Positions 1 through 18,620 are shown, counted from the stretch's first letter. The stretch: DNA of 64,000 bases from an uncultured Haliea sp. (GCA_963974125.1 CAXBCH010000014.1:32018-96017), one strand, 5' to 3'. The notes: a model not told the origin generated them from the sequence alone. Program-made: numbers and translations.

Positions 1-441
1 TGCCTGTGGCGTCGCCTGCAGCATCAACGCCAACGGACGGTGGTAGCCCGCCACCGCAGCCATCACCACTGCCCGGAGGCGGCCGTTGGCCATCATGTCG
101 TTGTACAGGGCGCCGTGGGGTTTGACGTAGCTGATCTGCAGGCCGTGACAGACCGCCATGCCGTCCAGGGCAGCGATCTGGTAACGCAGGGCGCTGGCCA
201 GCTCCGCATCATCCAGGTGCATGGTGCGACGGCCGAAACCAACGAGGTCCGGGTAGGCGGGGTGGGCACCGACGCTGACGCCGTGGAGGGCGGCCAACGC
301 CAGGGTCTTGTCTATCGTGACAGGGTCGCCCCCGTGGAAGCCGCAGGCAATGTTGGCCTGGTCGATGTGGGGCATGACGTCGGCATCCATGCCCATTTCC
401 CAGCTGCCATAGCTTTCGCCGAGATCGCAATTGAGTAGCAT
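1..441 (-). CDS. pxpA: 5-oxoprolinase subunit A (LamB/YcsF family), partial, runs off window edge
   Basis: Reverse-strand translation from ATG at 441: MLLNCDLGESYGSWEMGMDADVMPHIDQANIACGFHGGDP...GAHPAYPDLVGFGRR...YVKPHGALYN, hallmark LamB/YcsF motifs. Not in the ORF track because it is truncated. Confidence 0.9.
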   Translation of the reverse strand, partial: MLLNCDLGESYGSWEMGMDADVMPHIDQANIACGFHGGDPVTIDKTLALAALHGVSVGAHPAYPDLVGFGRRTMHLDDAELASALRYQIAALDGMAVCHGLQISYVKPHGALYNDMMANGRLRAVVMAAVAGYHRPLALMLQATPQA

Positions 442-471
442 TGTCTATCCTGTGCGCGCAAACGCGTGTGA

Positions 472-1257
472 TCAGAGTATAGCCAGTTGGCTGTTGCGCA
501 GGTCAGTTACCAGCATGCAGCCCGGGCTGTGGGTAATTGCCAGCGGCGGCCGCGCCTGCTCCAGTGCCACCTGCGGAGTTACGCCGCAGGCCCAGAACAC
601 CGGCAGTTCCCCCGCCTTGATGCTGACCCGGTCTCCGTAGTCGGGTTGCTCCAGGTCGCGAATGCCGATCTGGGCCGGGTCGCCGAGGTGGATCGGAGCG
701 CCGTGGACCGAGGGGAAACGGGTGCAGATCTGGATCGCACGAATGGCATCCGCCGCCCTGAAGGGGCGCATGCTCACCACCATCTTGCCGGTGAAGGGTC
801 CCGCCGGCTGGCAGTCGATATCCGTGCGATACATCGGCACATTGACGCCCTCGGTCACGTTGCGCACTTCCAGCCCATCGGCCAACAGCGCTTCCTCGAA
901 AGAGAACGAGCAGCCCAGGGCGAAGGTGACCAGATCATCCTGCCAGAGGCCGGTGATGTCGTTGCGCTCTTCCTGCAGCTTGCCATCCCTGAAAACCCGA
1001 TAGCTTGGCACGTCGGAACGGATGTCTATATCCCCCAATAGTGGTAGCGCCGGGTCGCCCGGTACCGCGGAGCTGGCGATGAGCGGGCAGGGCTTGGGAT
1101 TGGCCTGGCAGAAGCGGAGAAAATCACTGGCCCAGGTCGCGGGCAGGATGACGATATTGCACTGTACGAAACCGGCGGCGAAACCCGATGTGTTGCCGGT
1201 GTGCTCCCCGTTGCGGATGCGGTGGCGCAGTTCTGCCGGGGTGGAATTGCTGGCCAT
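472..1257 (-). CDS. Putative hydro-lyase, DUF1445/YcsI (D-glutamate cyclase-like) family
   Basis: [20 protein letters not shown] and FWACGVTPQ motifs; start trimmed to MASNS; upstream of pxpA on the same strand. Confidence 0.85.
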
Positions 1258-1344
1258 GATAAACCTCGTCGGGCGGAGGGCGGGTCCCACCACTGGAGGC
1301 CGCGCCCGGAAAACAGGATAATGTGCTCTTGCCTGCCATCATAG

Positions 1345-2196
1345 ATGATTCCCCTCATGCTCGACCAGTTGCTGCAGATTCTCTCTCCCCGTGCCGCCAA
1401 CGAAGATGTCTTTATCGCCCACAATATGCATCCGGAGGCTCCCCGGGTCTACGGAGGGCAGGTGCTGGCCCAGGCGTTGCGGGCCGCGGCCGCGACCGTC
1501 GCCCCGGATCGGGCGGTGCATTCCCAGCACGCCTACTTCCTCCGCCCCGGCGATCCGGGGGAGGAAATTCGCCTGGAGGTGGACCGGGCCCTGGATGGCG
1601 GCAGCCTCAGTTCGCGCCGGGTTGTGGCCCTGCAGCGGGGCAAGCCGATCCTGGTGTCCTCGGTTTCTTTCCAGCGTGAAGGGCGTGGCGATGAATTCCA
1701 GCAGCCACTGCCGCCAGTGCCGGCGCCGGAAACCCTGCCCAGCGAGCGGGAGCGGGCACTGGCGGAGGGCACCATGGACCAGAGCTTCATGGTGGCCACC
1801 GGCCTGGATCTGGATGTACGGCTGGTGACCCCGGTGGACTGGCGCAATCCCAAACCCCTGCCCCCGCACCTGCAGGCCTGGGTGAAAACCACCGGGCCGG
1901 TGCCGGAGGAGCAGTCCCTGCATGCCAGTCTGCTGGCCTACATGTCGGACATTCTGCTGATTGATGTCTGCCTGGCAGCAACGGGCCGCAGCTTCCTGCT
2001 GGACGACTGCCAGATCGCGAGTCTTGATCATGCCCTCTGGTTCCACAACCCGGTCCGGGCTGACGACTGGCTGTTGCACACGGTCGAGGCCGAGCGGGTC
2101 AGTGGCGGACGCGGACTGGCGCGGGGCAAGTTCTACAACCCGGAGGGAGTGCTGGTGGCCTCGGTGGTCCAGCAGGGCCTGATGCGCCTGCGTTGA
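1345..2196 (+). CDS. Acyl-CoA thioesterase II (TesB family)
   Basis: VYGGQVLAQAL, HAYFLRPGD, DGGSLSSRRV, ASLDHALWFH and SVVQQGLMR motifs. Confidence 0.85.
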   Translation: MIPLMLDQLLQILSPRAANEDVFIAHNMHPEAPRVYGGQVLAQALRAAAATVAPDRAVHSQHAYFLRPGDPGEEIRLEVDRALDGGSLSSRRVVALQRGKPILVSSVSFQREGRGDEFQQPLPPVPAPETLPSERERALAEGTMDQSFMVATGLDLDVRLVTPVDWRNPKPLPPHLQAWVKTTGPVPEEQSLHASLLAYMSDILLIDVCLAATGRSFLLDDCQIASLDHALWFHNPVRADDWLLHTVEAERVSGGRGLARGKFYNPEGVLVASVVQQGLMRLR

Positions 2197-2265
2197 CGCG
2201 TTGCCTCGCCGGATGGGGCACCTTATGATGCTGGGCTGGACCGCGCCCATTATAAGGAACCCGAC

Positions 2266-3855
2266 ATGCCACACCCCGCGATAACCGCTGAAACCTACCC
2301 CCACAAGCCCGCCATCATCATGGGCGGCTCCGGCGAGATGGTCACTTATGCCGAGCTCGACGAGCGCAGCAACCAGGCGGCGCAGCTGTTTCGCTCACTG
2401 GGCCTGAAAAAGGGCGACCATATCGGCATGATGCTGCTGAACTGCCGCCAGTTCCTGGAAATCTGCTGGGGCGCGCAGCGGGCGGGCCTGATTTTCACCC
2501 CCATCAGCACCCACCTGAAGCGTGATGAAACCGCCTATATCCTTGAAAATTGCGGCGCCAAACTGTTTATTGCCTCCCATGGCCTGGCCGGCGTGGCCGA
2601 AGAGGTACTGACCGCCACGGACGGTACCATCCGCCATTTCTACATGGTTGACGGGATTATCGACGGCTTCGAGTCCTGGGACGACAGCGCCGGCCTGCAG
2701 CCTGCGGAGCGCATCGCCGACGAGGCCAACGGAGTGCCGATGCTGTATTCATCCGGCACCACCGGCAAGCCCAAGGGCGTATTCCTGCCGCCCGCCGGCG
2801 ATGACGTCAATACCCCCCATCCACTGGCGGCAAGTCTGGGAGCCGCCTTCGGCTTCAGCGAGGAAACGGTGTACCTTTCGCCGGCACCGCTTTACCACGC
2901 AGCCCCGCTGCACTACAACATGATGACGCTGTACCAGGGCGGTACCACCGTGGTGATGGAGAAGTTCGACCCCGAGGCCGCCCTGGCGCTGATCGAGGAA
3001 CACCGCGCCACCCACAGCCAGTGGGTGCCCATCATGTTCGTGCGCATGCTCAAGTTACCTGAGGAAGTGCGTAACAAATACGATCTCAGCAGCATGCAGT
3101 TTGCCATTCACGCCGCCGCACCGTGCCCGATTGAGGTGAAGGAAAAAATGATCGAATGGTGGGGCGAGGTCATCGTCGAGTACTACGCCGCCAGTGAAGG
3201 TATCGGCATCACCATCATCGATTCCGCCAACTGGCTGACCCACAAGGGTTCGGTAGGTCCCTCCCTGTCCGGCAAGATCCATATCCTCGATGACGATGGC
3301 AAGGAACTGCCCCCCGGCGAGATCGGCACCGTGTATTTCAGCGGTGAGCAGGCCCAGTTCAAGTATCACAACGAGCCTGACAAGACCGCCGAGGCTTTCA
3401 ATGAACACGGCTGGGCCACGACCGGTGATGTCGGCTACCTGGACCGGGACGGCTTCCTGTACCTGACCGATCGCAAGCATTTCATGATCATCAGCGGCGG
3501 CGTCAACATCTACCCGCAGGAAATCGAGAACCTGCTGATCACCCACGACAAGGTGGCGGATGTGGCCGTGTTCGGGATCCCCAACGAGGAGTTCGGAGAA
3601 GAGGTCAAGGCAGTAGTGCAGCCCATGAACTGGGTGGATGCCACCGATGAAGTGGCAATCGAGATCATGGAGTGGCTGCGCGAGCGCATCTCCCACATCA
3701 AGTTGCCGCGGTCGCTGGATTTCCACCGCGAGCTGCCGCGGATGGACAACGGCAAGCTGTACAAGCGGCACCTGATGGAAGAGTATCGCGGGGCGACCCG
3801 CACGGATGAGAAAGGTGACATGCTGGACAAGGGCAAGAATCCGCCCGAGGGGTAA
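2266..3855 (+). CDS. Acyl-CoA synthetase (AMP-forming ANL family)
   Basis: YSSGTTGKPKG P-loop, EYYAASE, TTGDVGYLD and ISGGVNIYPQEIE. Confidence 0.9.
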   Translation: MPHPAITAETYPHKPAIIMGGSGEMVTYAELDERSNQAAQLFRSLGLKKGDHIGMMLLNCRQFLEICWGAQRAGLIFTPISTHLKRDETAYILENCGAKLFIASHGLAGVAEEVLTATDGTIRHFYMVDGIIDGFESWDDSAGLQPAERIADEANGVPMLYSSGTTGKPKGVFLPPAGDDVNTPHPLAASLGAAFGFSEETVYLSPAPLYHAAPLHYNMMTLYQGGTTVVMEKFDPEAALALIEEHRATHSQWVPIMFVRMLKLPEEVRNKYDLSSMQFAIHAAAPCPIEVKEKMIEWWGEVIVEYYAASEGIGITIIDSANWLTHKGSVGPSLSGKIHILDDDGKELPPGEIGTVYFSGEQAQFKYHNEPDKTAEAFNEHGWATTGDVGYLDRDGFLYLTDRKHFMIISGGVNIYPQEIENLLITHDKVADVAVFGIPNEEFGEEVKAVVQPMNWVDATDEVAIEIMEWLRERISHIKLPRSLDFHRELPRMDNGKLYKRHLMEEYRGATRTDEKGDMLDKGKNPPEG

Positions 3856-3861
3856 TGCAGT

Positions 3862-3894
3862 GGCCTGCCCCCGCGGTTGCTGCGGGTGCAGGCC
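3862..3894. terminator. GC-rich stem-loop between convergent genes (possible bidirectional terminator)
   Basis: GGCCTGC-C-CCCGCGG-TTG-CTGCGGG-T-GCAGGCC; no strong U tract. Confidence 0.4.
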
Positions 3895-3906
3895 CTCGGC
3901 GATCCT

Positions 3907-4383
3907 TCAACGTTCGGCGACTTCCTGCCCGGACTGCAGGCTGCGCCCCGTCCTGCTGGCATGCATTTCCTCAAGACCCAGATGGCCCACGTTGCTGACC
4001 GCTTGATCCATCGCCGCCTCCAGGCAGGCCCTGCGGTCCCGGTTCATGGCGGCATTGCGGATGTCGGCCCGCGGAGAACACACATCGCTGGTCGCCTGGG
4101 TCAGGCGCACGTAAAGCTGCTCCAGGCCCGCGGGCCGACTCAAGTCGAGATCTGCCCAGGTGACCGTCGCTGACCGTTCCGTGCGCCCGGCAGCGGGGAA
4201 GCGTACGAAGTTGGCCCGGGTATCGCGAGTGATTTCCCGGGCGGTGGGCTGCTCCATGATGCGGCGGTAGTCCTCCGCTGCGACTGTCTGGCTGTTGACC
4301 AGTGGCAGGGCCAACGCCAGTGACAGGATCGCGGTGGCACCCAGGGGCAGTTTGCTGAGCTTCTCATTTTTTACAGTTTTCAT
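3907..4383 (-). CDS. UrcA family secreted small protein
   Basis: N-terminal signal peptide; V-x-W-A-D-L-D-L-S-x-x-A-G-x-x-x-L-Y-x-R-L-x-x-A...VC...RAC...A-M-D-Q-A-V core with a Cys pair; SD GAGGA upstream. Confidence 0.8.
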   Translation of the reverse strand: MKTVKNEKLSKLPLGATAILSLALALPLVNSQTVAAEDYRRIMEQPTAREITRDTRANFVRFPAAGRTERSATVTWADLDLSRPAGLEQLYVRLTQATSDVCSPRADIRNAAMNRDRRACLEAAMDQAVSNVGHLGLEEMHASRTGRSLQSGQEVAER

Positions 4384-4487
4384 GAGGTGTTCCTCGCTTG
4401 TGGGCTTTCGTTTACGGGCTTTTCGCCGGGAGGTATTCCCTGCTGTTCAGCCCTGAGCCAAGTTGAGCACAGGCGTTGGTGCGGCGC

Positions 4488-4560
4488 CGGATGAAGCCGT
4501 GATTTCGCCGGGAGGAAGTTGTGATTTACCTCTGATGGAAATGTGATGGCATGTAAATCA
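4488..4560. promoter_or_regulatory. Array of 11-bp-phased (G/C)TGAT(G/T) repeats plus 8-bp inverted repeat; putative OmpR-type wHTH operator
   Basis: GTGATT 4499, GTGATT 4521, CTGATG 4532, GTGATG 4543; degenerate copies at 4488 and 4510; inverted repeat TGATTTAC 4522-4529 / GTAAATCA 4553-4560. Confidence 0.55.
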
Positions 4561-4736
4561 ATAGGTTAGAGGCTCCTTCATGTCCGCGCCGCCGCTGGTA
4601 TCTGGCGAGCGCGGCATCTTTGCGGATCCGGTACCAGGCTGATCGGGTTCTGCCCGGGTGCCCGCCCGGCGCCTGTGACCCGATACGGGGCGAGGTCTGG
4701 TAAGCTTGCAAGGAGATTGACAGCAAGGATGGCGAC

Positions 4737-7079
4737 ATGGCGCGGCAAGTCCGCTTTGGTGACTGGCATTTTTGCCGCGACACCGGTGTGCTCGACAGGG
4801 ACGGTACGGTGGTTTCCCTGGAGCCGCGGGTGGCCGCGCTGCTGCAGCACTTTCTCGATCATCCCGGTGAGCTGCTGAGTCGCGACCAGCTGGTTGCGGA
4901 GGTCTGGGAGGGCAGGGTGGTGTCTGACGACGCCATCCGCCGGGCGGTATCGTCGCTGCGTCGCGCCCTGGCGCTGGATGGCAGCGACAAGCTGATCACT
5001 ACCGTGCACAAGAAAGGCTATCTGGCGAGTCTGCCGGTGCCAGTTCCCGTGCCGGCGCCGGGGCCAGCGCCAATGCCGATGGATGCTGGAGTTGAAGCGG
5101 CGCCAGCTGCGACTCGGCGCCGCAACCCGGTTTTGCCGCGACGATCGCTGTTGCTGCTGGCGGTCATGCTGTTATTCACGACCCTCGGTGCGGCCTGGCA
5201 CCTGCTGCAGTCCCCGATCCCTGACGCCCAGACTGACGATGTAAAGGGCCCGCCCTACACCCTTGCGGTGCTGCCGTTTGTGGACCTGAGTGAAAATGCG
5301 GACAACGGCTTTCTGGCCGACGGGCTGGCGGAAGAGCTGCTGGGGCTGCTGGGGCGCTTCGATGCATTCCGGGTACCCGCCCGCAGTTCCTCGTTTCAGT
5401 TCCGGGGCCAGGTGGTCAGCCCGCGAGAGGTCGGCGAGGCGCTGGGGGTGCGCTATCTGGTTGAAGGCAGCGTCCGGCGGGATGGCGACCAGGTCAGCGT
5501 TGATGTGCGTCTTGTTGAGGCTGCTACCGGCTTTCAGCTGTGGTCGGAAAACTACCAGCGCGACCTCGCGGGTTTGTTCGCCCTGCAGTCGGACATCGGC
5601 ACCCAGGTCGCCCGCGCGCTGCAGGTGGCCCTGGTGGAGCCGACGCTGCCCGCCGCCCGCGCGCTGGAAGCTGCCGGGCCCGCGGGTGCCAAGGCTTACC
5701 TCGAATACCTGCGCGCCCGGCAGCTGATGAGCAGCTGGGGAACCGCCGACCTGGAGGCAGCTATTGCTCATCTGCAGAACGCCATTGCCCTGGCGCCGGA
5801 TTTTGCCCCGGCCTATACCCGCTTGGCGGAAGCGATACTGACACAGGCCAGTGGTCGGGACGATAACGCGCGGATGCAGACCCGCGACACAGTAAAGGCC
5901 CTGATCGAGAAATCCCTGGCGCTGGATCCGGATCTGGGTGAAGCCTACGGCCTGCGCTCCAGCTTGTGGCCAGACGGGGAAGAAGCGTTGAAGGAGCAGG
6001 ATCTGCGCCGGAGCATAGCGCTCAGCCCGAGCTATACTTTGGCCTATCGATGGCTCGCGGAGTATCTCTATTTTCAACTCGGACGAGGCGATGAGGCAAT
6101 TGCGTTGATAGACCAGGCCCGGGCTCTGGATCCCCTGTTGCCTCGCAACCATTACCTCAAGGCGTTGATGATGCTGGACAGTTGTGAGCACGAGCGGGCC
6201 GCAGAGCTTGCCCGGGACGCGCTGCGGGTCAATCCCCGCTTTCGCTCCGGACTGGTCATGCTCGCCCGGGTTGCCGAACAGCGGGGCGAGCTGGCCGAGG
6301 CGGTGCGGCTGCAGGAGCAGGCACTCGAGCTGGATCCCCGCGCCGACTGGCTTAGAGAGCGGCTGCACATGACCTACACAGATCTGGGAGATATTGCCGC
6401 CGCGCGCGAGATGGGCGGCGATCATTTCCGGACCCTGCTGCGAGAGTCTCTTTTCCTTGCGAATCATGCTGCGACGAGTGATTTGATTTATTCGGCCGAA
6501 CCCCTTTCTCCGGAGGCCGCACCGCATCGTCTCTGGAGACAAACCGACGTGCTCCTTGTTACCGCCATGACCAGCGGAGATTATGCCCGGGCCCGCCGCT
6601 ACCTGAGTGACCATCTTGAATACAATGGTGGGCTGCCGCAAACCCTCGCCCCCAAAGACCTCTTTTATCTGCTCAATATGGTTCTCGTCTGGTATGGGCC
6701 GGACCATGACACCGCGGCCCAGGGCCTGATAAATCGTCTGTGGACGGAAATGAACGCAATGCGGGGGGAGTTCCGGAGTTGTCTGGCCAGCTATCAACCA
6801 CTGGCGCATGCGCTGGCCGGCGTGAGCCTGGGGCGCCATGACGAGGCAATCGCAGTGCTTGAGAGCGCAATCGACAACGCAGACATTGCGTCCAGCTGGC
6901 ACTGGATCATCCTCAACCACCCTGCATTTGCTCCTCTGCTGGAGGAACCCCGGCTGCAGGAATTGTTGCAGCAGCGGCAGGCTGTAGTGGCGGAGCAGCG
7001 CGAGATTCTGGAAAGGATGCGTGCCGAAGGCGTCGTGCCGCTGCGGGGGCAGGGCAGCGGAAGTCCCGCGCCGGGCTGA
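4737..7079 (+). CDS. CadC/ToxR-like membrane one-component regulator: wHTH + TM + TolB-like N domain + TPR (paralog 1)
   Basis: N-terminal Trans_reg_C (SRDQLVAEVW...ITTVHKKGY), one hydrophobic TM, LAVLPFVDLS...GLAEELL TolB-like domain, A-x-x-LDP TPR repeats. Confidence 0.85.
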   Translation: MARQVRFGDWHFCRDTGVLDRDGTVVSLEPRVAALLQHFLDHPGELLSRDQLVAEVWEGRVVSDDAIRRAVSSLRRALALDGSDKLITTVHKKGYLASLPVPVPVPAPGPAPMPMDAGVEAAPAATRRRNPVLPRRSLLLLAVMLLFTTLGAAWHLLQSPIPDAQTDDVKGPPYTLAVLPFVDLSENADNGFLADGLAEELLGLLGRFDAFRVPARSSSFQFRGQVVSPREVGEALGVRYLVEGSVRRDGDQVSVDVRLVEAATGFQLWSENYQRDLAGLFALQSDIGTQVARALQVALVEPTLPAARALEAAGPAGAKAYLEYLRARQLMSSWGTADLEAAIAHLQNAIALAPDFAPAYTRLAEAILTQASGRDDNARMQTRDTVKALIEKSLALDPDLGEAYGLRSSLWPDGEEALKEQDLRRSIALSPSYTLAYRWLAEYLYFQLGRGDEAIALIDQARALDPLLPRNHYLKALMMLDSCEHERAAELARDALRVNPRFRSGLVMLARVAEQRGELAEAVRLQEQALELDPRADWLRERLHMTYTDLGDIAAAREMGGDHFRTLLRESLFLANHAATSDLIYSAEPLSPEAAPHRLWRQTDVLLVTAMTSGDYARARRYLSDHLEYNGGLPQTLAPKDLFYLLNMVLVWYGPDHDTAAQGLINRLWTEMNAMRGEFRSCLASYQPLAHALAGVSLGRHDEAIAVLESAIDNADIASSWHWIILNHPAFAPLLEEPRLQELLQQRQAVVAEQREILERMRAEGVVPLRGQGSGSPAPG

Positions 7080-7171
7080 CCCGAATCCGCAGGCACTGCG
7101 GGGCACCGCCCGTCCCGCGCGCAGGCGAGAGCTGGTAAGCTTGTGGGCGGCGTGACTGCAGGGAAGGCGAC

Positions 7172-9520
7172 ATGGCGCGGCAAATCCGCTTTGGTGACTG
7201 GCACTTTTATCCCTATACCGGGGTGCTCGAGAGGGAGGGGGCAGCGGTCTCACTGGAGCCTCTGGTAGCGAGCCTGCTGGAATATTTTCTCGACCACACC
7301 GGCGAGCTGCTGAGTCGCGACCAGCTTATTGCGGAGGTCTGGGAGGGCAGGGTGGTGTCTGACGACGCCATTCGCCGGGCGGTATCCTCGCTGCGGCGCG
7401 CCCTGATACTGGATGGCAGCGACAAGCTGATCACTACCGTGCACAAAAAGGGCTACCTTGCGAGGCTGCCCCGCGTCGAGCCGCTGCCGCCCGATGCTGC
7501 TGTGCGGCCCCCCGCCGAACCGGCGCTTCCCGCTGCCCCGGTGTTGTCCGCCACCAGCTCAGCCCCCCGGGCTGTCGCTGGTTCCTTCAACCCTGCTATT
7601 GCGCGACGTCCACTGCTGCTGGTTGTATTGTTGTTGCTGGTCATGCTCGCCAGTGTCTGGGCCTGGCTGCAGCGGCCGCCGCCCGCCGCCACCGCGATGG
7701 ATGATCCGCCCTACACCCTGGCGGTGCTGCCCTTTGTTGACCTCAGCGAGAATGCCGACAATGCCTGGCTGGCGGACGGTCTGGCGGAGGAGCTGCTGGG
7801 ATTGCTGGGGCGCTTCAGTGACTTCCGCGTAGCTGCCCGCAGTTCCTCATTCCTGTTTCGCGATCCGGCGGCCAGTCCGCGGGAAGTGGGGACGGCGCTT
7901 GGGGTGCGCTACCTGGTGGAGGGTAGTGTGCGCCGGGATGTCGATCGGGTGCGCGTTGATGTGCGGTTGCTGGATACCGATTCCGGCTTCCAGCTCTGGT
8001 CGGAAAACTACACTCGCGGCCTGTCCGGTCTGTTGGCGTTGCAGTCGAATATCGCGACCCAGGTGGCACGGGCACTGCAGGTGGTGCTGGTGGAACCGGA
8101 GCAACCGGGTGCCCTGGCGCTGGAAGATGCAGGAGCCGAGGGTGGCCAGGCCTATCTCGAATACCTGAGGGCCCGGCAACTCACGGCCAGTTGGGCGACG
8201 GCCGATCTGGAGGCCGCTGCCCTGCGTTTGCAGAACATCATTGACCTGGCACCGGACTTTGCCCCGGCCTACGCGCAGTTGGCCGAGGTCATGCTGATTC
8301 AGGCCAGTCGGGGCGGGGGCGAACAAGGCCCACCGAAGCGCGAGCTTGCTGCCACCCTGGTGGAGAAAGCCCTGCAACTGGATCCCGATCTTGCGCCTGC
8401 CTACACCATACGGGCGGGCCTGTACCGCGATCCCGGAAATCCTGCAGTGGAGGCCGACCTGAGGCGCAGTATCACCCTGAATCCCAGCTACCCCAAGGCC
8501 TACGAGATTCTCGCGCAAAGGCTGTTTGCCAGCGCCGAGCGGCGGCAGGAAGCGCTGCAGCTGATTGATCAGGCCCGCGCGCTGGACCCGCTGCGCGCCC
8601 GGCTACATCATGTCAAAACCTACATGACCTTTGATCTCTGCCAGCTCGACGCTGCCGAGGATCTCGCCCGGCAGGCACTGCGGGTGAATCCCCGGTTTCC
8701 CGCTTCCCTGGTGATGCTGGGTCACATCAACAGCTGGCGGGGGGAGCTGGCGGAGGCGGTGAAGCTGCAGGAGCAGGCGCTGGCTATGGATCCCGACAGT
8801 ATCTGGACGCGACAGCACCTGCACAACGCCTACCTCGTGCTCGGGGAACGGGAAGCGGCGCGACAGGTGGACGTCAGCAGCGCCCGGTCGCTGTGGGCCG
8901 AGCGCCTGCTGCTGGAAGGTCCAGCCAGCGCGGGGGAGCTGGTCTACGGCAGTGACGCCGCCACCATGCGGCGCCAGCTGGGGCCCTGGTCCGAGACCTA
9001 CTCGGTGCTGGCGGCCGCGATTGTCAGCGGCGATTTTGCGCTTGCGCAGCGGCATATCGAGGAGCGGTTCGGCTTCGATGGCGGCCTGCCGGAGCACATC
9101 GATCCCGCCGAGTTGACGGCGCTGGTGAACATGGTGCTGATCTGGTTCGGAGGCTCGCTGGATCAGCGGGGCCTGGAGCTCATGCAAGACCTTGACGCGG
9201 AGATGGCGAGACAGGACTTGCAGGCTCCCAACTGCCTGCAGGGCCACATGCCTCTCGCGCGGGCGCTGGCGGCAACGGCCCTGGGAGAGCCCGACCGCGC
9301 GCTCGGTCTGCTGCGGGAGGGGGAGCAGCGGAACCGGCTTGCCGGCGGCTGGTATCGTTTGCTGGAGGTCCAGCCCGCGTTCGCGGCGCTGGTCGCGCAT
9401 CCGGAATTTACCGCCCTGCAGCGCGACTGGGAGCAGCGCCTGGCAGACCAGCGGGCACAGCTGGCGCAGCTGCGGGAGAATGGCAGCATCCCCGACCGCC
9501 GGGCGGCACCGCCGGGTTGA
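7172..9520 (+). CDS. CadC/ToxR-like membrane one-component regulator: wHTH + TM + TolB-like N domain + TPR (paralog 2)
   Basis: Same architecture as 4737-7079; tandem duplicate. Confidence 0.85.
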   Translation: MARQIRFGDWHFYPYTGVLEREGAAVSLEPLVASLLEYFLDHTGELLSRDQLIAEVWEGRVVSDDAIRRAVSSLRRALILDGSDKLITTVHKKGYLARLPRVEPLPPDAAVRPPAEPALPAAPVLSATSSAPRAVAGSFNPAIARRPLLLVVLLLLVMLASVWAWLQRPPPAATAMDDPPYTLAVLPFVDLSENADNAWLADGLAEELLGLLGRFSDFRVAARSSSFLFRDPAASPREVGTALGVRYLVEGSVRRDVDRVRVDVRLLDTDSGFQLWSENYTRGLSGLLALQSNIATQVARALQVVLVEPEQPGALALEDAGAEGGQAYLEYLRARQLTASWATADLEAAALRLQNIIDLAPDFAPAYAQLAEVMLIQASRGGGEQGPPKRELAATLVEKALQLDPDLAPAYTIRAGLYRDPGNPAVEADLRRSITLNPSYPKAYEILAQRLFASAERRQEALQLIDQARALDPLRARLHHVKTYMTFDLCQLDAAEDLARQALRVNPRFPASLVMLGHINSWRGELAEAVKLQEQALAMDPDSIWTRQHLHNAYLVLGEREAARQVDVSSARSLWAERLLLEGPASAGELVYGSDAATMRRQLGPWSETYSVLAAAIVSGDFALAQRHIEERFGFDGGLPEHIDPAELTALVNMVLIWFGGSLDQRGLELMQDLDAEMARQDLQAPNCLQGHMPLARALAATALGEPDRALGLLREGEQRNRLAGGWYRLLEVQPAFAALVAHPEFTALQRDWEQRLADQRAQLAQLRENGSIPDRRAAPPG

Positions 9521-9531
9521 GCGCCTTCTGT

Positions 9532-12432
9532 TCAGAAGCGAACACTGGCTCCGAGGAACCAGTACTGTCCCAGCGCATCGTAGACCCCGGGCAGGGTGTT
9601 GCCATTGCCGGCCGGGGGATTGACCTGCACCAGCGGTGGGGCCTTGTCCAGCAGGTTGTTCACCCCGGCCTGTAGCGTGACGCCTTCCCGGGCCGCCCAG
9701 CGCAGGGACAGGTCGAGATAATCATGGGCCGGTACCTCGGGCCCGACACCGGTAACCGGCGACAGCCCACCGATGTGCCGCCAGAGGCCGCTGACCTCCA
9801 GCTGCCAGGGGGTGTCCCAGGTCAGGCGCAGATAGTTGCGGACCTTCGGTATCACGCTGTTGCAGTTGCCGCCCCAGCGTCCGCGACATTCCAGTACGGC
9901 GCCCCCCGGCGCGTCCTGGAGCTCCCAGGACTGTACCCGGGTAAACAGATTGTGGAGGCGCAGGCGACCCGCGGCGCCCAGTTCCCGGCTGAACGCCAGT
10001 ACCAGGTCCAGGCCACGGGTACGCAGATAGCCGGCATTCTGTTTGCGCGCGTCCACGAGCCCGGTGCCGGTGGGGCGCCAAAGATCGCCGCGCTCGGGAT
10101 CGCGTTGCACTTGCCGGCACAGGCTTGCCAGGCCGGTGTCGAGGCAGCCCTGGAGCGTGCTGGCCGGGTCCGGCTCGGTGATTGCACGCTCGATTTCAAT
10201 GTCGTAGGCGTCCAGGCTCAGGAGCATCCCCTCGGCCCAGTCCGGCGTGTAGACCAGCCCCAGGGTGCGGGTGCTGGCATCCTCGGGCTGCAGCGCATTA
10301 TTGCCGCCAGCGAGGGAGCGCAAATTGTTGTTGGGGCTCTGGGGGATGCTGCCGTATTGTTCGGCGCTGACACCGCTGCGGGCGCAATCGGCCAGTGAGC
10401 GTGCAGGTGAGGCGCCGGCACAGGGGTCGCCCGTGCTGGCAGTGAACGTGCGGGTACCCTCGGGACTGAACAGTTCCTCGATATTGGCCACCCGGGTGGC
10501 CTCCTGCAGGCTGCCTCGCAGCCGCAGCGCGGGATTGATTGCCCAGACACTGGCCAGCTTGAAACTGTTGCTGGTGGTGTCGGTGGAATAGCGGGCATGG
10601 CGATAACCGAGATCCAGCGTCAGCAGTTCTATCCCCGGCCGGTTCTCCACCAGAGGCGTGTGCAGTTCCGCATAGGCTTCGGTGATGTCGAAGCGACCGT
10701 CCAGCACTGGCACGGGTAGGCCCGTGCCAGCGGCGTCACCCGACCGGTACAACTGATCCGGGTTGTAGCGCAGGGTCTCCTCCCGATATTCGCCGCCGAG
10801 GACGACGGCGGTCCGGCTTGCAGCCAGAGGCGATTGCAGCAGGGGCAGTGCCGGTTCACCGCCGATCCAGCCGGCGACCACCGCCTGGGAGGTGCGGCCA
10901 CGGGCGCTGAGCGGCGCGCCCAGATAGGCAATGGCTTCCGGGGTGACCGCACCCTCGGTAAAGATGTTCCAGGGCACACAGGCGGGATCGCTGCCATCGA
11001 GGCGGGACGCGCACACGGGCTCGCCGCTGGCCGGATCGCGAGTGACGTCAAGGGCCTTTCGCATCCGCGACACCAGCAGTTCATTGGCGGTCGAGTCGCG
11101 CAGGGTCACTTCCGCAAACTGGCCGTAGACTTCGTACTGCCAGCGTTGCCCCAGTTTTCCCTCCAGCCCCAGCAGGGCGCGGTGCGACTGGTGGTCAATG
11201 CTGCGGCGGCGCGGGCCGCCCTCGACATTGCGTCGGCCGATAAACAGCAGCGGTGGCTCATCCCCCTCAAGTCCGTAGCTGTCGCAAACCAGCGAGCGCT
11301 GCTGCGCGGACAATAGCGGATTGTCGCAGCGGAAGGCGCTGTCGAGGAAAAAGGCACCGGAGGGCGCGATCTGGGCCGTGGTGTTGTTGTCCATTGCCAT
11401 CAGCTGGGTGAACACCCGGACCCGGGGCGAGAATGCGTAGTGCCCCAGCACACCGGCGGTCCAGCGCCGGTCCGGGCGCTGGAAGTGGTTGAGGGAGGCA
11501 AAATTGTAGCTGCGGCCATCGTAGGGCAGGAAGCTGTCGCCCTGAACGATGACATCAATCGGGGGCAGTCCGAAGTCGACCGGCAGCAGGCCGAAATCCG
11601 TAAAGCGGCCCTCGCCGATCACAGAGGAGCCGAAACAGCGGCGATTGTCGCCTCTCTGCTGCAGGGCGCAGGCGCTGTGAATCCGGTCGGCCTGGATAAC
11701 GGCGTCGCTCTCGCGCCAGGTTGCGTAGGCAGTGAGGTTGCCCGCGCCGTCAGCGAAGTTGTGCCCCGCCCGTAGTGCGATGTGCTGGCTGTCGCCATCG
11801 CGGACGCTGCGAGCCGGCAAGTCGAAGCCGCCGGCATCCAGCAGCCTGGCAATGTCGCTGTCACTGTTCCGGTGCCAGTACTGGCTGAATTGCGCCTCCA
11901 GCCCCACACCCTCGAAGTCGTCGACGAGCAGGAAATTCACCACTCCCGCCACCGCATCCGAGCCGTAGGTGGCAGAGGCACCGCCGGAGAGGATTTCCAC
12001 CCGCTTGATCAGCGCCGCCGGGATCTGGTTGACATCCGCCACCCCGGCACTCAGCGGGGAGCCCCCCGGCAGGCGCCTGCCGTCCACCAGCACCAGGGTG
12101 CGCTGGGGGCCGAGGTTGCGCAGGTCGACAGTCGCGGTGCCGGTGCTGCCATTGGCGGTGTTGCGGTTCTGATCGGTGTAGACCTGGGGCAAGGCCCGCA
12201 GCAGATCTTCCAGCCGGTCGCTGCCGCCGTGGGAGAGATCATCCGCCGACAGGTCAACCACCGGGCTTGGGCTGCCGAGATTGACGCGCTGGATGCGGCT
12301 GCCGGTGACCAGCACTTCTTCAATGATCCTGTCCCGGTCCTTCGCCGTAAGGCTGGCGCCCGCGGCTTGCGGAATCAAAACCAGATTCCCCAGCAACGTA
12401 CCTGCAAGCAGGCACTTGCGGAAGTCATTCAT
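9532..12432 (-). CDS. TonB-dependent receptor (Cys-rich)
   Basis: Signal peptide from MNDFRKCLL, TonB box EEVLVTGSRI, plug motifs LRNLGPQRTLVLVDGRR and GASATYGSDAVAGVVNF, C-terminal Phe. Confidence 0.92.
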   Translation of the reverse strand: MNDFRKCLLAGTLLGNLVLIPQAAGASLTAKDRDRIIEEVLVTGSRIQRVNLGSPSPVVDLSADDLSHGGSDRLEDLLRALPQVYTDQNRNTANGSTGTATVDLRNLGPQRTLVLVDGRRLPGGSPLSAGVADVNQIPAALIKRVEILSGGASATYGSDAVAGVVNFLLVDDFEGVGLEAQFSQYWHRNSDSDIARLLDAGGFDLPARSVRDGDSQHIALRAGHNFADGAGNLTAYATWRESDAVIQADRIHSACALQQRGDNRRCFGSSVIGEGRFTDFGLLPVDFGLPPIDVIVQGDSFLPYDGRSYNFASLNHFQRPDRRWTAGVLGHYAFSPRVRVFTQLMAMDNNTTAQIAPSGAFFLDSAFRCDNPLLSAQQRSLVCDSYGLEGDEPPLLFIGRRNVEGGPRRRSIDHQSHRALLGLEGKLGQRWQYEVYGQFAEVTLRDSTANELLVSRMRKALDVTRDPASGEPVCASRLDGSDPACVPWNIFTEGAVTPEAIAYLGAPLSARGRTSQAVVAGWIGGEPALPLLQSPLAASRTAVVLGGEYREETLRYNPDQLYRSGDAAGTGLPVPVLDGRFDITEAYAELHTPLVENRPGIELLTLDLGYRHARYSTDTTSNSFKLASVWAINPALRLRGSLQEATRVANIEELFSPEGTRTFTASTGDPCAGASPARSLADCARSGVSAEQYGSIPQSPNNNLRSLAGGNNALQPEDASTRTLGLVYTPDWAEGMLLSLDAYDIEIERAITEPDPASTLQGCLDTGLASLCRQVQRDPERGDLWRPTGTGLVDARKQNAGYLRTRGLDLVLAFSRELGAAGRLRLHNLFTRVQSWELQDAPGGAVLECRGRWGGNCNSVIPKVRNYLRLTWDTPWQLEVSGLWRHIGGLSPVTGVGPEVPAHDYLDLSLRWAAREGVTLQAGVNNLLDKAPPLVQVNPPAGNGNTLPGVYDALGQYWFLGASVRF

Positions 12433-12574
12433 CTGTCTGCCCCCGGTCGACCCATTACCCAAGCCGCATCTGCGCACATGTCCATGGCAGGCACCCTGCA
12501 GCAACAAGCTTAACACCGGTCAATGAACTTCTCTGCACTACCTCTGCAGCAGGTTTGCGCCGATGGTATTGAGC

Positions 12575-15500
12575 TCAGGTGGACGGAACCTGGACAGTCG
12601 GGGTTGCAATCGTCTGCGTTTGCCGCAGCGGCAGGTAGTAGGCGGGCAGCACAAACAGGGTAAACAGCGTCCCCACCAGCATACCGGCGGTGATCACCAG
12701 GCCGATGCTGAAGCGGCTGTTGGCGCCGGCCCCGGTGGCAATAACCAGCGGCAATACGCCGAGCACGGTGGCGAAGGTGGTCATCAGGATCGGGCGCAGG
12801 CGCAGGGCCGCCGCCTCCAGCACTGCATCCCGGTGGCTGCGGCCATCCTGGCGCAGGTTGTTGGCGAACTCCACGATCAGGATCCCGTGCTTGCTGATCA
12901 GGCCGATCAGGGTCAGCAGCCCGATCTGGGTGTAGATGTTGAGGGTGGCGAAACCCAGGGCCAGCGGCACCGTGGCGCCAAAAATGGACAGCGGCACCCC
13001 CACCAGTACCACCAGCGGGTCGCGGAAGCTGTTGAACTGGGCTGACAGGACCAGAAAGATCAGGATCAGCGCCAGGCTGAACAGCAGCGGGAAGGAGGCG
13101 CTCTCCTCAATGAAGCGGCGGGAGCCGCCGGTGTAGCCGGCGCGGAAGCCGCTGGGGGCGATTTCCTCCAGTTTCGTTTCCAGGAACGCCAGCCCGTCGC
13201 CCAGCGAGTTCGGGGGCATCATCATGCCCTGGATGGTGGTGCTGTTGAGCTGCTGGTACTGGCTCAGTTCATTGGGTTCGACCCGCGAGCCCAGTGTCAC
13301 CAGCGCCGACAGGGGCACCAGTTCGTCGCTGGCGGTGCGCAGGTAATATTGCTCCAGCGCCTCCCGGGTGAGGCGGAAGTCGCGGCCGGCCTGGGGGATG
13401 ACCTTGTAGCTGCGGCCCTCGAGTTCGAAGCGGTTGATTTCCGCCTCGCCCAGCATCACCGCCAGGGTCTGGCCGATCTCCTCCATGGAGACACCCAGGC
13501 GCGATGCCAGCGGCCGGTCTATGCGCACTTCGATTTCGGGCCGGTCCAGGGCCAGGGTCTGGTTGACGAAGATGAACAGCCCCGATTCGCGAGCTGCTTC
13601 CAGCAATGTCACGCCGACCTGGTAGACCTCGCTGTGATCGGCCGTGGAGGCGACCACGAAGCTGACTGGCAGCCCCGCATCCGAGCCCGGTAGCGAGGGA
13701 GTCCCGAAAGAGAAGGCCTCCAGCCCGGCGATGCTGCCCAGCCGCTGCTGGAATTCGGCCTGTATCTCCTGCTGGCTGCGCTCGCGCTCGCTCCAGTGGT
13801 GCAGTGTCAGGCCGCCGAAGTTGAATTCCGGGGAAACCGCTTGCCAGGAGTGGCTCACCTCGGGAATCTCGCGCCAGATGTCCACCACCTGGTCCAGAAA
13901 GCGGTTGATGTACTCCAGGTTGGCGTAACGGGGTGTGCTGCCGACCACGTAGAGGGCGCCGGTATCCTCTTCCGGTGCCAGTTCCTCGCGCGTCAGCGAG
14001 AACAGCAGCGGCAGGCTGGCAATGAGCACCATGCTGAACATCAGCACCGCGCCGCGGTTATCCAGGCAGTGTGCCAGCAGACGCTGATAGGCCAGGGTGA
14101 AACGTTCGAAATGGTGATCCAGCCAGTTGGCAAAGCGCCCCTGGTGCGCCTGATCCTTGAGCAGGCGCGAGCACATCATCGGGCTCAGGGTCAGGGCGAT
14201 AATGCCAGAGACCATGACGGCACCGGCCAGGGTCAGGGCGAATTCGCTGAACAGGGTACCGGTGAGACCGCCGATAAAGGCGATGGGTGCATAGACTGCG
14301 GCCAGGGTGAGGGTCATTGCCACCACCGGCCAGGCTACCTCGCGCGCGCCCCGGATGGCCGCCTCCATCGGCGCCATGCCATGCTCGATGTGGCGATGGA
14401 CATTCTCCACCACCACGATGGCGTCATCCACCACCAGGCCGATGGCAATCACCATGGCCAGCAGGGTCAGCAGATTCAGGGAGAAGCCGAGGCTGAAGAT
14501 CAGGAACACCACGCCAATCAGGGACAGCGGGATGGCGACCAGCGGGATCAGCACCACCCGCAGCGAGCCCAGGAACAGGTAGATCACCAGAATGACAATA
14601 AGCACCGCTTCCAGCAGGGTGTTGCGCACTTCCTTGAGCGCGGCGTCAATGGCGATGGTACCGTCCCAGTCCAGGTACAGCTCCAGGTCCGCGGGCAGCG
14701 CCGCGGTGATGGCGGGCAGGGCATCGTGCACGGCGGCGCTCACCGCCAGCGGGTTGGCATCCGGGGTGGTGGTGATGGAGATGAAGGTGGCCTCGCGGCC
14801 GCTGGAGAGGGTCTGGAACTGGCTGTTTTCCTCTGCCAGCTCAATGTCGGCGACATCGCCCAGGCTGACCTGGCGGTCGTCCTCGCGGAACACCGTTAGC
14901 GCGGCGAATGCTTCCGGTGTCTGCAGGTCTGTGCGTGGATCCACGGTGGCCCGAATCAGTTCACTCTCGGTGCTGCCGGCCGTGGCGATGAAATTGTCCC
15001 GGCTGATGGTGGCGTGGACATCGCTGGCGGTGACGCCGTGGGCGGCCATGCGCAGTGGGTCCAGCCAGATCCGCATCGCCGGAAACCTGCCCCCGAGGAT
15101 CTCGGCCTTGCCAACGCCCTCCAAGGTGGCGAGTTCCGGTTGCACACTGCGCGCGAGGTAGTCGGAGATTTCCGCCGTGCTCATCTGCTCGCTGTAGAAC
15201 GCGAGGTAGATCAGGGCATCGTCGCCGCCACCGGTGGTCACCACCGGGTCATAGACCTCACGGGGCAGCTGGAACCGCGCTTCATTGACCTTGGCGATGA
15301 CTTCGGTGAGCACGTCGCTGCTGTTTTCGCCCAGACGCACGTGGACGCTGATTTCGGAAGTGCCGGGGTTGCTGGTCGAGGTCATGTACTCGACGCCGCG
15401 GGCGCCAGCGATGGTGCTTTGCAGGGGCGTGGTGACGAAACCCTGCACCGAGCGGGCGCTGGCGCCGGGATAGACCGTGACCACGCGGATGACGCTGCGC

Positions 15501-15622
15501 TCGACCTCGGGAAATTCCCGGATCGACGTTCTGTTGGCCGCCGCGATGCCCAGCAAAAGGATCAGCGCGCTGACCACGAGGGCCAGCACCGGGCGCTGGA
15601 TAAAGGTATCGGTGAAGCGCAC
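12575..15622 (-). CDS. RND efflux transporter permease subunit (HAE1, MexI/MexW-like)
   Basis: FIQRPVLA, IGLVVDDAIVVVEN, GLISKHGILIVEFAN and RLRPILMTT; 1015 aa. Confidence 0.93.
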   Translation of the reverse strand: MRFTDTFIQRPVLALVVSALILLLGIAAANRTSIREFPEVERSVIRVVTVYPGASARSVQGFVTTPLQSTIAGARGVEYMTSTSNPGTSEISVHVRLGENSSDVLTEVIAKVNEARFQLPREVYDPVVTTGGGDDALIYLAFYSEQMSTAEISDYLARSVQPELATLEGVGKAEILGGRFPAMRIWLDPLRMAAHGVTASDVHATISRDNFIATAGSTESELIRATVDPRTDLQTPEAFAALTVFREDDRQVSLGDVADIELAEENSQFQTLSSGREATFISITTTPDANPLAVSAAVHDALPAITAALPADLELYLDWDGTIAIDAALKEVRNTLLEAVLIVILVIYLFLGSLRVVLIPLVAIPLSLIGVVFLIFSLGFSLNLLTLLAMVIAIGLVVDDAIVVVENVHRHIEHGMAPMEAAIRGAREVAWPVVAMTLTLAAVYAPIAFIGGLTGTLFSEFALTLAGAVMVSGIIALTLSPMMCSRLLKDQAHQGRFANWLDHHFERFTLAYQRLLAHCLDNRGAVLMFSMVLIASLPLLFSLTREELAPEEDTGALYVVGSTPRYANLEYINRFLDQVVDIWREIPEVSHSWQAVSPEFNFGGLTLHHWSERERSQQEIQAEFQQRLGSIAGLEAFSFGTPSLPGSDAGLPVSFVVASTADHSEVYQVGVTLLEAARESGLFIFVNQTLALDRPEIEVRIDRPLASRLGVSMEEIGQTLAVMLGEAEINRFELEGRSYKVIPQAGRDFRLTREALEQYYLRTASDELVPLSALVTLGSRVEPNELSQYQQLNSTTIQGMMMPPNSLGDGLAFLETKLEEIAPSGFRAGYTGGSRRFIEESASFPLLFSLALILIFLVLSAQFNSFRDPLVVLVGVPLSIFGATVPLALGFATLNIYTQIGLLTLIGLISKHGILIVEFANNLRQDGRSHRDAVLEAAALRLRPILMTTFATVLGVLPLVIATGAGANSRFSIGLVITAGMLVGTLFTLFVLPAYYLPLRQTQTIATPTVQVPST

Positions 15623-15650
15623 CCTCAGGCTCCTGTCATGCGGTTGCTGG

Positions 15651-16721
15651 TCACAGTGGCGCGTTTTCGTCTATCTGGATGCTGGCGCCGCGGTACAGCT
15701 TGTTCTGGCCCGCGGTCACAATTCGCTCCCCGGCCGCCAGACCTTCAAGAATGGCGATCCGGCCGTTGGCTGCGGCGCCGATGCGCACCACCCGGGGCTG
15801 CACCTGCAGGCCGCCTTCTTCCCCGGGCTCGACCACGAAAACGGTATCGCCGCTGGTGGAGTAGGTGATGGCGGTCTCCGGCACGCTGACCCGGGTCTCG
15901 GTCCGGTCCAGGTCGATGCTGATCCTGGCAAACATGCCCGGCAGCAGGCCTTCACTCTCGCTCAGTTCAGCCCGCAGCAGCAGGCTGCGGGTGTCGGCAT
16001 CCACCAGCGAGTCCAGTGCCGTGAGGGTGGCAGCGAACAGCCGCTGTTCATACCCGGGCACCGCGACCCGCAGCCGCAGGCCGGGCCGCAGCAACGGCGC
16101 GAAGCGGCCGGGAACCGCAAAATCAACTTCCAGCGTGTCCAGGTCCTGCAGGCTCGCTACCCGGGTCCCGGCCTCGACATAGTCACCAACCCGGGCCTGG
16201 ACGATACCCACGGTGCCGGCGAACGGCGCCCGTAACTGCTTGTTGGCGAGCACTGCTTCGGTCTCCGCCAGCTGCGCCTCGGCCACCGCCAGATCAGCCC
16301 GGGAGCGGTCGTACTGGGTCTGGGGGATGGACTTCTGCTCCAGCAGGCGCGCATCGCGCTCGAACAGCAGTCGCGCCAGCTCGACAGCAGCCCGCTGGCG
16401 CTCGCGGCTGGCCAGCTCCGCGCGGTCGTTCAGCTGCAGCAGCAGTTGGCCTGCTGCCACGCGCTCTCCTGAGCGCACCGCGACCGCTGTTACTTCGCCG
16501 CTTTCTTCAGTGCTGAGCTCGACCCCGCGGGCGGCCCGGATGCTCCCGGTCGCCGTCAGCGTCTCTGGCCACAGGCTTTCTGCAGCAGTCGCCGCAGCGA
16601 CAGTGATCGGTGGCTGGCTGACGTCCTGGTTCGCATAGCCGGTAAACTGCTGATAGAGGTAGGCGGCAATCGTGCCGAATATCAGCAGCAACAGGGCGAG
16701 GGCAATAAGGTAAGCGCGCAA
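15651..16721 (-). CDS. RND efflux periplasmic adaptor subunit (MFP)
   Basis: N-terminal TM, lipoyl-like halves, RAPFAGTVG and LLPGMFARI; directly upstream of the RND permease; TTG start. Confidence 0.9.
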   Translation of the reverse strand: MRAYLIALALLLLIFGTIAAYLYQQFTGYANQDVSQPPITVAAATAAESLWPETLTATGSIRAARGVELSTEESGEVTAVAVRSGERVAAGQLLLQLNDRAELASRERQRAAVELARLLFERDARLLEQKSIPQTQYDRSRADLAVAEAQLAETEAVLANKQLRAPFAGTVGIVQARVGDYVEAGTRVASLQDLDTLEVDFAVPGRFAPLLRPGLRLRVAVPGYEQRLFAATLTALDSLVDADTRSLLLRAELSESEGLLPGMFARISIDLDRTETRVSVPETAITYSTSGDTVFVVEPGEEGGLQVQPRVVRIGAAANGRIAILEGLAAGERIVTAGQNKLYRGASIQIDENAPL

Positions 16722-16940
16722 AACGGGTCTCTTCTTTTTTTTGGTTGCCGACGGTGGCGTGTGGGTCGCCGTCGGTATCGTATTCTAGGGACTTTGGCCG
16801 GCGCCTGCACCGACTGAAAATGTAACAATGACCAACTCGGGGCCGCTGCCGCCCGGTGTCGCTGTGGCCTGATTCAACCTGTGCCCGGCCTTGGGTTTGC
16901 AGTATGCTAGCTGTAGGTCAAGTGGCAGAGAGGTCAGCCC

Positions 16941-18599: not shown

Positions 18600-18620
18600 T
18601 CGCGCCGCCGTGGTGCCGGA

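Follow-up and report, generated by a model that had tools for sequence, protein, structure and literature searches.

A CadC-type regulator paired with the gene of a long-form UrcA protein in Haliea and related bacteria

The subject of this study is a 64,000-nucleotide stretch of DNA from an uncultured Haliea sp. (GCA_963974125.1, CAXBCH010000014.1:32018-96017; hereafter the window) and in particular its positions 3907-12432, where a gene of the UrcA family (urcA) lies divergently to two tandem regulator genes, regA and regB, and a gene for a TonB-dependent receptor (TBDR) converges on the latter. To our knowledge, UrcA proteins owe what is known of them almost exclusively to Caulobacter, where the corresponding gene is the one most strongly induced by uranium, and to the use of its promoter in biosensors. 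An earlier sequence-only reading of the window had joined the four genes into one envelope-signalling module. The comparisons described below reveal a smaller conserved unit, a two-gene cassette consisting of a CadC-type regulator gene and the gene of a long-form UrcA protein.

Several described systems resemble this locus in part. The periplasmic sensor of E. coli CadC consists of an alpha/beta subdomain and a tetratricopeptide repeat (TPR)-like helical subdomain (PMC9214523). Like CadC, RegA and RegB are predicted to combine a cytoplasmic winged helix-turn-helix (wHTH) domain of the OmpR/PhoB type, a disordered linker and one transmembrane (TM) helix, without a receiver domain, and to place an alpha/beta and a TPR-like helical part in the periplasm. 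They differ from CadC in their genomic context, which is cadBA/lysP for the latter, in the length of the helical part, to which RegA and RegB add about 300 residues, and in the absence of the periplasmic disulfide of CadC, as their alpha/beta domain contains no cysteine. Furthermore, in contrast to CadC, their proposed target is the gene of a small secreted protein, and they occur in tandem paralog arrays.

In Caulobacter, the OmpR-type wHTH regulator UzcR acts directly on urcA, activating it in response to uranium, zinc and copper, and its regulon also includes TBDRs and multidrug efflux pumps (PMC8963506). An urcA-family gene under an OmpR-family wHTH protein that senses conditions outside the cytoplasm is also what we propose for Haliea, and the gene classes of the UzcR regulon, TBDR and efflux pump, are those clustered at the Haliea locus. 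However, UzcRS is of the two-component type, its genes lie apart from urcA, and its motif is CATTAC-N6-TTAA as compared to GTGAT repeats here, whereas the Haliea regulator would be a one-component membrane protein encoded beside urcA.

In cpxP-cpxRA and zraP-zraSR the gene of a small periplasmic protein lies divergently to the gene of its sensor, and CpxP and ZraP feed back on the respective system. The Haliea locus shares with them the gene of a small, presumably secreted helical protein that diverges from one or more membrane sensor genes, but the sensors of the known systems are of the two-component or sigma-54 type, and neither in sequence nor in fold does UrcA detectably resemble CpxP, Spy or ZraP. 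By analogy, one may hypothesize feedback by UrcA. A CadC-like wHTH TM regulator with a small extracytoplasmic neighbour is likewise found in ToxR/ToxS, VtrA/VtrC and PsaE/PsaF (PMC9214523). Partners of the ToxS, VtrC and PsaF type are encoded downstream on the transcript of the regulator, are anchored in the membrane and pair with the short periplasmic domain of the regulator into a beta-barrel-like heterodimer (PMC9214523). In contrast, UrcA is usually encoded divergently and is predicted to be soluble with a three-helix core instead of the lipocalin-like beta fold of such partners, and the regulator appears to have a full CadC-type sensor of its own. What FecA-FecR-FecI has in common with the locus, finally, is no more than the principle that an outer-membrane TBDR is coupled to transcription beyond the inner membrane. 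A FecIR-like surface-signalling circuit is not supported, as the TBDR has no STN extension, neither an extracytoplasmic function (ECF) sigma factor nor a FecR-like anti-sigma factor is encoded nearby, and the TBDR is not the conserved partner. In the literature on the UrcA family and on CadC-like TPR regulators we found no paper describing a pairing of UrcA with a CadC-like protein.

Conserved pairing of long-form urcA with a regulator gene

The window lies on contig C14 of a 4.2-Mb genome in 78 contigs (G000), whose nearest public relatives are Haliea metagenome-assembled genomes (MAGs; family Halieaceae). Every gene listed for the region by the sequence-only reading was found at or near its assigned place, and the gene calls confirmed that a gene for a secreted-type UrcA protein (3907..4383, minus strand, 158 amino acids) diverges from two tandem plus-strand genes for regulators of about 780 amino acids, RegA (4737..7079, 780 amino acids) and RegB (7172..9520, 782 amino acids). 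The 158-residue protein reached 53.4 bits on TIGR04433 (UrcA_uranyl, cut-off 25) over profile positions 20-88 of 92; a Pfam scan gave no match for it. Its N-terminus carries a hydrophobic, signal-like segment of cleavable appearance followed by VAA-ED, there is no second TM helix, and the protein is predicted to be a small exported protein. In an AlphaFold model the core (residues 70-150) forms three helices with a predicted local distance difference test score (pLDDT) above 90, and residues 1-63 are disordered. C102 and C120, together with the core, are invariant in alignments of 12 and 14 sequences, and the model positions these two cysteines such that they could bridge helices of the core. 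A Foldseek comparison of the model with the PDB gave no fold match at E<=0.001. What distinguishes the long form from the short canonical UrcA proteins is a disordered N-terminal extension of about 45 amino acids, which the latter lack. Within it (residues 36-63 here) an acidic, semi-conserved sequence, (M/I)E(E/Q)(T/P)T, is a candidate short linear motif.

RegA orthologs adjoin urcA in all related loci. By tblastn of the window proteins, G010 has the same layout as the window. The gene order is FadD-urcA-Reg-RND-MFP-patatin in G008 (RND, resistance-nodulation-division permease; MFP, membrane fusion protein) and FadD-urcA-Reg-patatin in G011 and G013; in G017, which belongs to another genus, the divergent Reg/urcA pair alone is found between other flanks. 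An order-level protein search detected UrcA in 7 of 301 genomes, of which five belong to another family, and all 12 loci reached via the long form carried an adjoining gene for a RegA-like wHTH protein. When the coordinates of TIGR04433 matches were compared with those of wHTH genes in 151 Halieaceae genomes, 11 genomes from 7 genera showed the pair; the commoner short canonical UrcA genes, including those of G000 itself on contigs C24 and C25, are unpaired. Coming from the regulator side, all five inspected metagenomic or assembly loci whose regulators are 38-57% identical to RegB carry an UrcA gene, and a scan with the regulator alignment over one genome per species (185,579 species) placed an UrcA gene beside the regulator in 15 of 34 loci. 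Altogether about 30 loci contain the pair; they belong to several genera of the Halieaceae and to a neighbouring family and otherwise have differing flanks. As there are only 1-3 UrcA-family genes per genome, linkage in about 30 loci cannot be due to chance. Among 400 sampled Gammaproteobacteria (class level) one other genome had an UrcA-family match, which was not linked to a regulator; the cassette is therefore phylogenetically narrow. Of the linkage postulated earlier, the part between UrcA and regulator holds in Halieaceae and beyond, and the part concerning the TBDR does not, its gene being missing from the loci of G008, G011, G013 and G017.

Two further observations concern individual copies. 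The sole regulator of the isolate Haliea sp. E1-2-M8 (G008; L042, 3277-5264), probably a decayed copy, lacks residues ~64-172, comprising wing, linker and TM helix, is split into two frames and is annotated as a hypothetical protein of 627 residues. At locus L001 (G000:C24:49790-51301) a short canonical UrcA gene immediately precedes a gene for a LytS-type histidine kinase (PF06580 and HATPase_c) on the same strand. This arrangement is found in G000 and G010, with a distance of about 1 kb in G017 and G022, and is absent in 13 other relatives. A general rule by which UrcA genes would always lie beside a sensor gene was rejected, as the short UrcA gene and the kinase gene are linked in only 4 of about 17 relatives.

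The 353-bp intergenic region between urcA and regA contains short units in an exact 11-bp register, namely CGTGA at 4498, CGGGA at 4509, TGTGA at 4520, TCTGA at 4531 and TGTGA at 4542, as well as an inverted unit, GTAAATCA, at 4553-4560. A conserved GCCGGAT (4486-4492) and an inverted TGTGCTC (4465-4471, minus strand) lie upstream. The repeat array shows little or no variation among six orthologous loci, one of them that of G017, in which the remainder of the spacer cannot be aligned. Two to four (T/C)GTGAT-N4 units with AAATCA downstream were found in a further 13 UrcA-linked loci. The three-unit pattern occurs only once in the 4.2-Mb genome, and the array is the top match of the position weight matrix (PWM) in the window, a partly circular result because the site of the window itself was included in the matrix. 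Its distance is about 85-135 bp to the start codon of urcA and about 125-185 bp to that of the regulator gene. A core of 7 bp with a spacer of 4 bp is the geometry of PhoB/OmpR-type wHTH proteins. RegA and RegB have the same recognition helix, VSDDAIRRAVSSLRRAL, which hardly varies within the clade, in keeping with the conservation of the repeats. We therefore refer to the stretch 4465..4560 with its phased (T/C)GTGAT repeats as the putative operator of the regulator. Searches by regular expression and PWM gave no copy of it upstream of the TBDR gene (12433-12574), in the regA-regB spacer or ahead of the RND operon.

The adjacency in about 30 loci, together with the conserved phased repeats between the genes, supports a functional tie between the regulators and urcA. 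One could still argue that the genes are functionally unlinked and lie side by side by accident. However, the long form adjoins regulators of one clade in loci with differing flanks and a conserved repeat array, and a linkage that is maintained across genera and families contradicts such a fortuitous juxtaposition, which we consider so improbable that it can practically be set aside.

Regulator architecture and duplication

RegA and RegB match PF00486 (Trans_reg_C) at residues ~24-96 with 56.5 and 54.3 bits, respectively (cut-off 26.2). The Pfam scan furthermore gave many TPR matches and no Response_reg receiver domain in either protein, and hydropathy analysis indicated a single hydrophobic segment at ~135-158 in RegA and ~139-170 in RegB. 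The AlphaFold model of RegA, calculated from an 11-sequence alignment (mean pLDDT 82, predicted template modelling score 0.70), comprises a winged helix (1-100), a disordered linker (108-134), a TM helix (135-158) that coincides with the hydrophobic segment and has disordered linkers on either side, an alpha/beta domain (174-294) and an unbroken all-helical TPR solenoid (305-763). In a Foldseek search of the PDB this model matched the CadC periplasmic domain (3LY7, 3LY8, 3LY9 and 3LYA) with target TM-scores of 0.61-0.66 and E-values of 4e-7 to 1e-5 over about 320 columns, and the DNA-binding domain of CadC (5JU7) with a TM-score of 0.85, a root mean square deviation of 2.0 A and 34% identity; generic TPR superhelices were also among the matches. 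These data support the assignment of RegA and RegB to the CadC/ToxR-type transmembrane one-component regulators, with the membrane topology predicted from hydropathy and model. Because of the matches to the CadC periplasmic domain, the segment previously termed TolB-like, which proved to be a real domain in the model (174-294), can be equated with the CadC alpha/beta subdomain, and judging from the model the TPR part prolongs the helical subdomain of CadC by ~300 residues. RegA and RegB are not CadC orthologs: they scored 103.8 and 97.8 bits on the CadC equivalog NF007540, far below its cut-off of 400, and cadBA is not among the neighbours in the window (urcA, TBDR, RND pump, FadD). In metagenomes, the combination of TolB-like domain and TPR is also fused to Ser/Thr kinases and adenylate cyclases; it is a widespread, uncharacterised extracytoplasmic module.

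RegA and RegB are 54% identical overall. The identity amounts to 84% in the wHTH part, 79% in the alpha/beta domain, 55% in the N-terminal and 32% in the C-terminal TPR part, and identity at third codon positions peaks in the wHTH part as well (0.76). In a maximum likelihood tree, RegA, RegB, the single Haliea regulators and three tandem regulators from a TARA scaffold form one clade (100/100), within which RegB and the third TARA regulator are sister to the rest, i.e. RegA and its orthologs. From this topology it follows that the array grew by duplication within Haliea. RegB is confined to G000, G010 and the TARA scaffolds, and the copy number in the genus ranges from 1 to 3. The three-copy locus (L052, TARA scaffold ERZ2783061, 4750-15687) has the order urcA, regulators of 771, 774 and 782 amino acids, TBDR. 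A leader of about 50 bp, GGTAAGCTTG...GGCGACATGGCGCGGCAA, is duplicated before the starts of regA and regB (4684-4736 and 7119-7171) and absent from single-regulator loci, which suggests that duplication or gene conversion took in the 5' untranslated region. Given the identical recognition helix, RegA and RegB should read the same operator while exposing different periplasmic surfaces.

A proposed role for the cassette

The explanation that we favour, and consider probable, is that the regulator binds the phased repeats and controls urcA, and that it was duplicated in tandem in Haliea. The regulator would reside in the inner membrane with its winged helix in the cytoplasm and with the CadC-like alpha/beta domain and a TPR solenoid of about 460 residues in the periplasm. 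Its winged-helix domains may bind the 11-bp-phased (T/C)GTGAT repeats head-to-tail, and from there the regulators would control transcription of urcA and probably also their own. The signal would be read by the periplasmic domain, with envelope or metal stress as the leading guess by analogy to Caulobacter. RegA and RegB would act at a common operator, where they might form mixed oligomers, and because of the divergence of their C-terminal TPR parts a single promoter could receive different periplasmic inputs. On these terms, the pair would show in compact, natural form how paralogous one-component regulators integrate signals, in a family that expands into tandem arrays with a common DNA-reading head and differing sensors. 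The long form beside a CadC-type regulator with a candidate operator furthermore offers a testable handle on the UrcA family outside the Alphaproteobacteria.

Several points weigh against this explanation. Envelope or metal stress as the signal is an analogy only. A simple scan of 3700-12800 found no sigma-70-like promoter, and the repeats could serve either of the two divergent promoters or both. The high third-position identity in the wHTH part and the duplicated leader make a partial 5' gene conversion possible, so that selection for a shared operator is not the sole explanation for the similarity of the two heads. In three loci (L054/L075, G112 and L059) the regulator gene either converges with urcA or precedes it, and a shared promoter region is therefore not universal. 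Finally, the reduced regulators described in the following could be decaying genes and not functional minimal forms.

In most UrcA-linked loci the regulator is full length with 750-800 amino acids. In G054 it lacks the alpha/beta domain (619 amino acids), in G314 and G410 it consists of the wHTH domain and a C-terminal TM helix only (about 167 amino acids), and in G349 and G439 of a soluble wHTH domain with a short tail. The adjoining UrcA gene is kept in all five of these genomes, and the GTGA repeats are kept at least at the G314 locus. The family thus seems to tolerate loss of the sensor domain while its target is kept, and since the DNA-binding head and urcA are constant and the sensor varies or is lost, urcA is best understood as the regulated target.

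The same observations bear on the possibility that UrcA is, instead of or besides being the target, a periplasmic partner of the regulator, i.e. a ligand, co-sensor or feedback modulator in the manner of CpxP-CpxA, ZraP-ZraS and ToxS-ToxR, the acidic motif of its disordered extension docking on the TPR solenoid. TPR domains typically bind extended peptides, only the long form with its extension is paired and the short copies of the same genome are not, and RegA and RegB differ mostly in their TPR half. The adjacency is also kept in the loci with a convergent arrangement, suggesting a link beyond a shared promoter. However, the pairing survives with regulators that lack the periplasmic domain or even the TM helix, and the UrcA proteins next to these keep a similar acidic motif. 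This weakens the original claim that UrcA is the ligand of the TPR domain. Moreover, UrcA appears to be helical and soluble and is usually encoded divergently, in contrast to the co-translated, membrane-anchored partners of the ToxS/VtrC type (PMC9214523). We therefore regard a partner role of UrcA as unlikely, if worth keeping in mind, and prefer control of urcA by the regulator.

The TonB-dependent receptor and the remaining neighbours

The TBDR gene (9532..12432, minus strand, 966 amino acids) is convergent with regB, with 11 bp between the stop codons, and starts 142 bp downstream of an RND efflux operon, in agreement with the previously described layout. This operon (12575..16721, minus strand) encodes a permease (12575-15622; ACR_tran, 840 bits) and a periplasmic adaptor (15651-16721; RND_mfp, 241 bits). 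The receptor itself matches PF07715 (Plug, 73 bits, residues 82-192) and the PF00593 barrel (92 bits). No STN domain was detected in the Pfam scan, and the Plug, which begins about 50 residues after the predicted start, leaves no room for one. The mature protein contains 12 cysteines in six close pairs, as the description "Cys-rich" had implied. The same six pairs (255/266, 369/383, 474/485, etc.) are, however, present in a 47% identical paralog (G000:C9:100135-102966), which is the copy common to the whole genus; the cysteines are therefore a trait of the clade and not special to this locus. They probably form disulfide-stapled extracellular loops typical of this TBDR clade.

On the basis of this neighbourhood, UrcA, both regulators and the TBDR had been proposed to form one envelope-signalling module, a TPR-based alternative to FecIR in which the periplasmic TPR domains read occupancy or cargo of the TBDR and control transcription of both urcA and the TBDR gene. 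Some support for TBDR control by regulators of this kind comes from a monophyletic sister clade (100/100), in which an orthologous TBDR of about 746 amino acids is encoded 25-50 bp downstream of the regulator gene and on the same strand in eight loci (L057, L065, L066, L069, L074, L076, L077 and L081, from Haliea, Halioglobus and other Pseudomonadales MAGs). As these genes are operonic, control of a TBDR by the regulator family is plausible, and the idea that such regulators can govern TBDRs is rescued to this extent. A distant locus, L059, moreover unites a regulator, UrcA and a TBDR, and the window TBDR is always accompanied by extra regulator copies, since it is found only together with RegB in G000, G010 and the TARA scaffolds.

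This co-occurrence of RegB and TBDR traces to one lineage and counts as a single event, and TBDR genes are very numerous, with 51 candidates in G000 on first look. The adjacency of the TBDR could be due to chance. The window TBDR is missing from the four orthologous loci named above, is homologous to the sister-clade TBDR in the Plug only, and is transcribed towards regB from a position downstream of the RND operon. It carries no STN or other signalling extension. No operator-like repeat precedes it in 12433-12574 or was found elsewhere in the locus, and none of the ten genes scanned in 1-18600 encodes a Sigma70_r2, Sigma70_r4 or FecR domain. Taken together, a four-part module including the TBDR is not supported by these findings, and we consider it quite improbable. 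With respect to the transcriptional control that had been proposed, adjacency and repeats argue for urcA as a target, and the lack of an operator-like site argues against the window TBDR. The RND genes are variable as well, being present in G000, G010, G008 and TARA and absent in G011, G013 and G017. We regard the TBDR as a lineage-specific neighbour outside the conserved cassette and do not accept it as a member; the RND genes are likewise regarded as neighbours.

On the tree, the UrcA-linked regulators are paraphyletic, so that the link to UrcA looks ancestral. This as yet uncharacterised family of CadC-like regulators thus swaps its conserved partner by clade, having UrcA in one and a TBDR in the sister clade. 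A more general scheme could accommodate both: trans-envelope signalling without sigma and anti-sigma factors, in which the TPR solenoid binds peptides of envelope proteins, either the UrcA extension or the TonB-box or plug of a TBDR, and arrays integrate the inputs. If this were true, binding of the acidic N-terminal extension of UrcA would close a feedback loop in the clade linked to UrcA, the solenoid would bind the TonB-box or plug of the co-transcribed TBDR in the sister clade, and tandem arrays such as RegA/RegB would integrate several peptide inputs on one operator. We consider this scheme a long shot, and the locus does not, on present evidence, represent a new cell-surface signalling mechanism.

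In the sister-clade loci, small secreted proteins of no assigned family (166 and 171 amino acids) recur nearby, and the upstream region at L069 contains CGTTA units in 11-bp phase together with AAAAATCAAT. At L057 a divergent gene encodes a FieF-like cation diffusion facilitator; beyond this single locus a role of the TBDRs in metal uptake found no support. No substrate-specific NCBIfam model reached its cut-off with the TBDRs of the window, the sister clade or L059.

The outer flanks of the window locus belong to lipid metabolism, with an acyl-CoA thioesterase of 283 amino acids (1345-2196, plus strand; 4HBT_3 in the annotated ortholog on L052), a FadD4-like ligase (2266-3855) and a patatin (16941-18599). 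A minus-strand open reading frame of 321 codons (1339-2304) was rejected as a shadow of the thioesterase gene, which is the true gene. Elsewhere in the genome, a further ToxR-like wHTH gene with an in-frame TGA is found on contig C19 (G000:C19:41224-41945), and about 450 bp upstream of it, on the same strand, lies a phased TGA-N8-TGA-N8-TGA motif.

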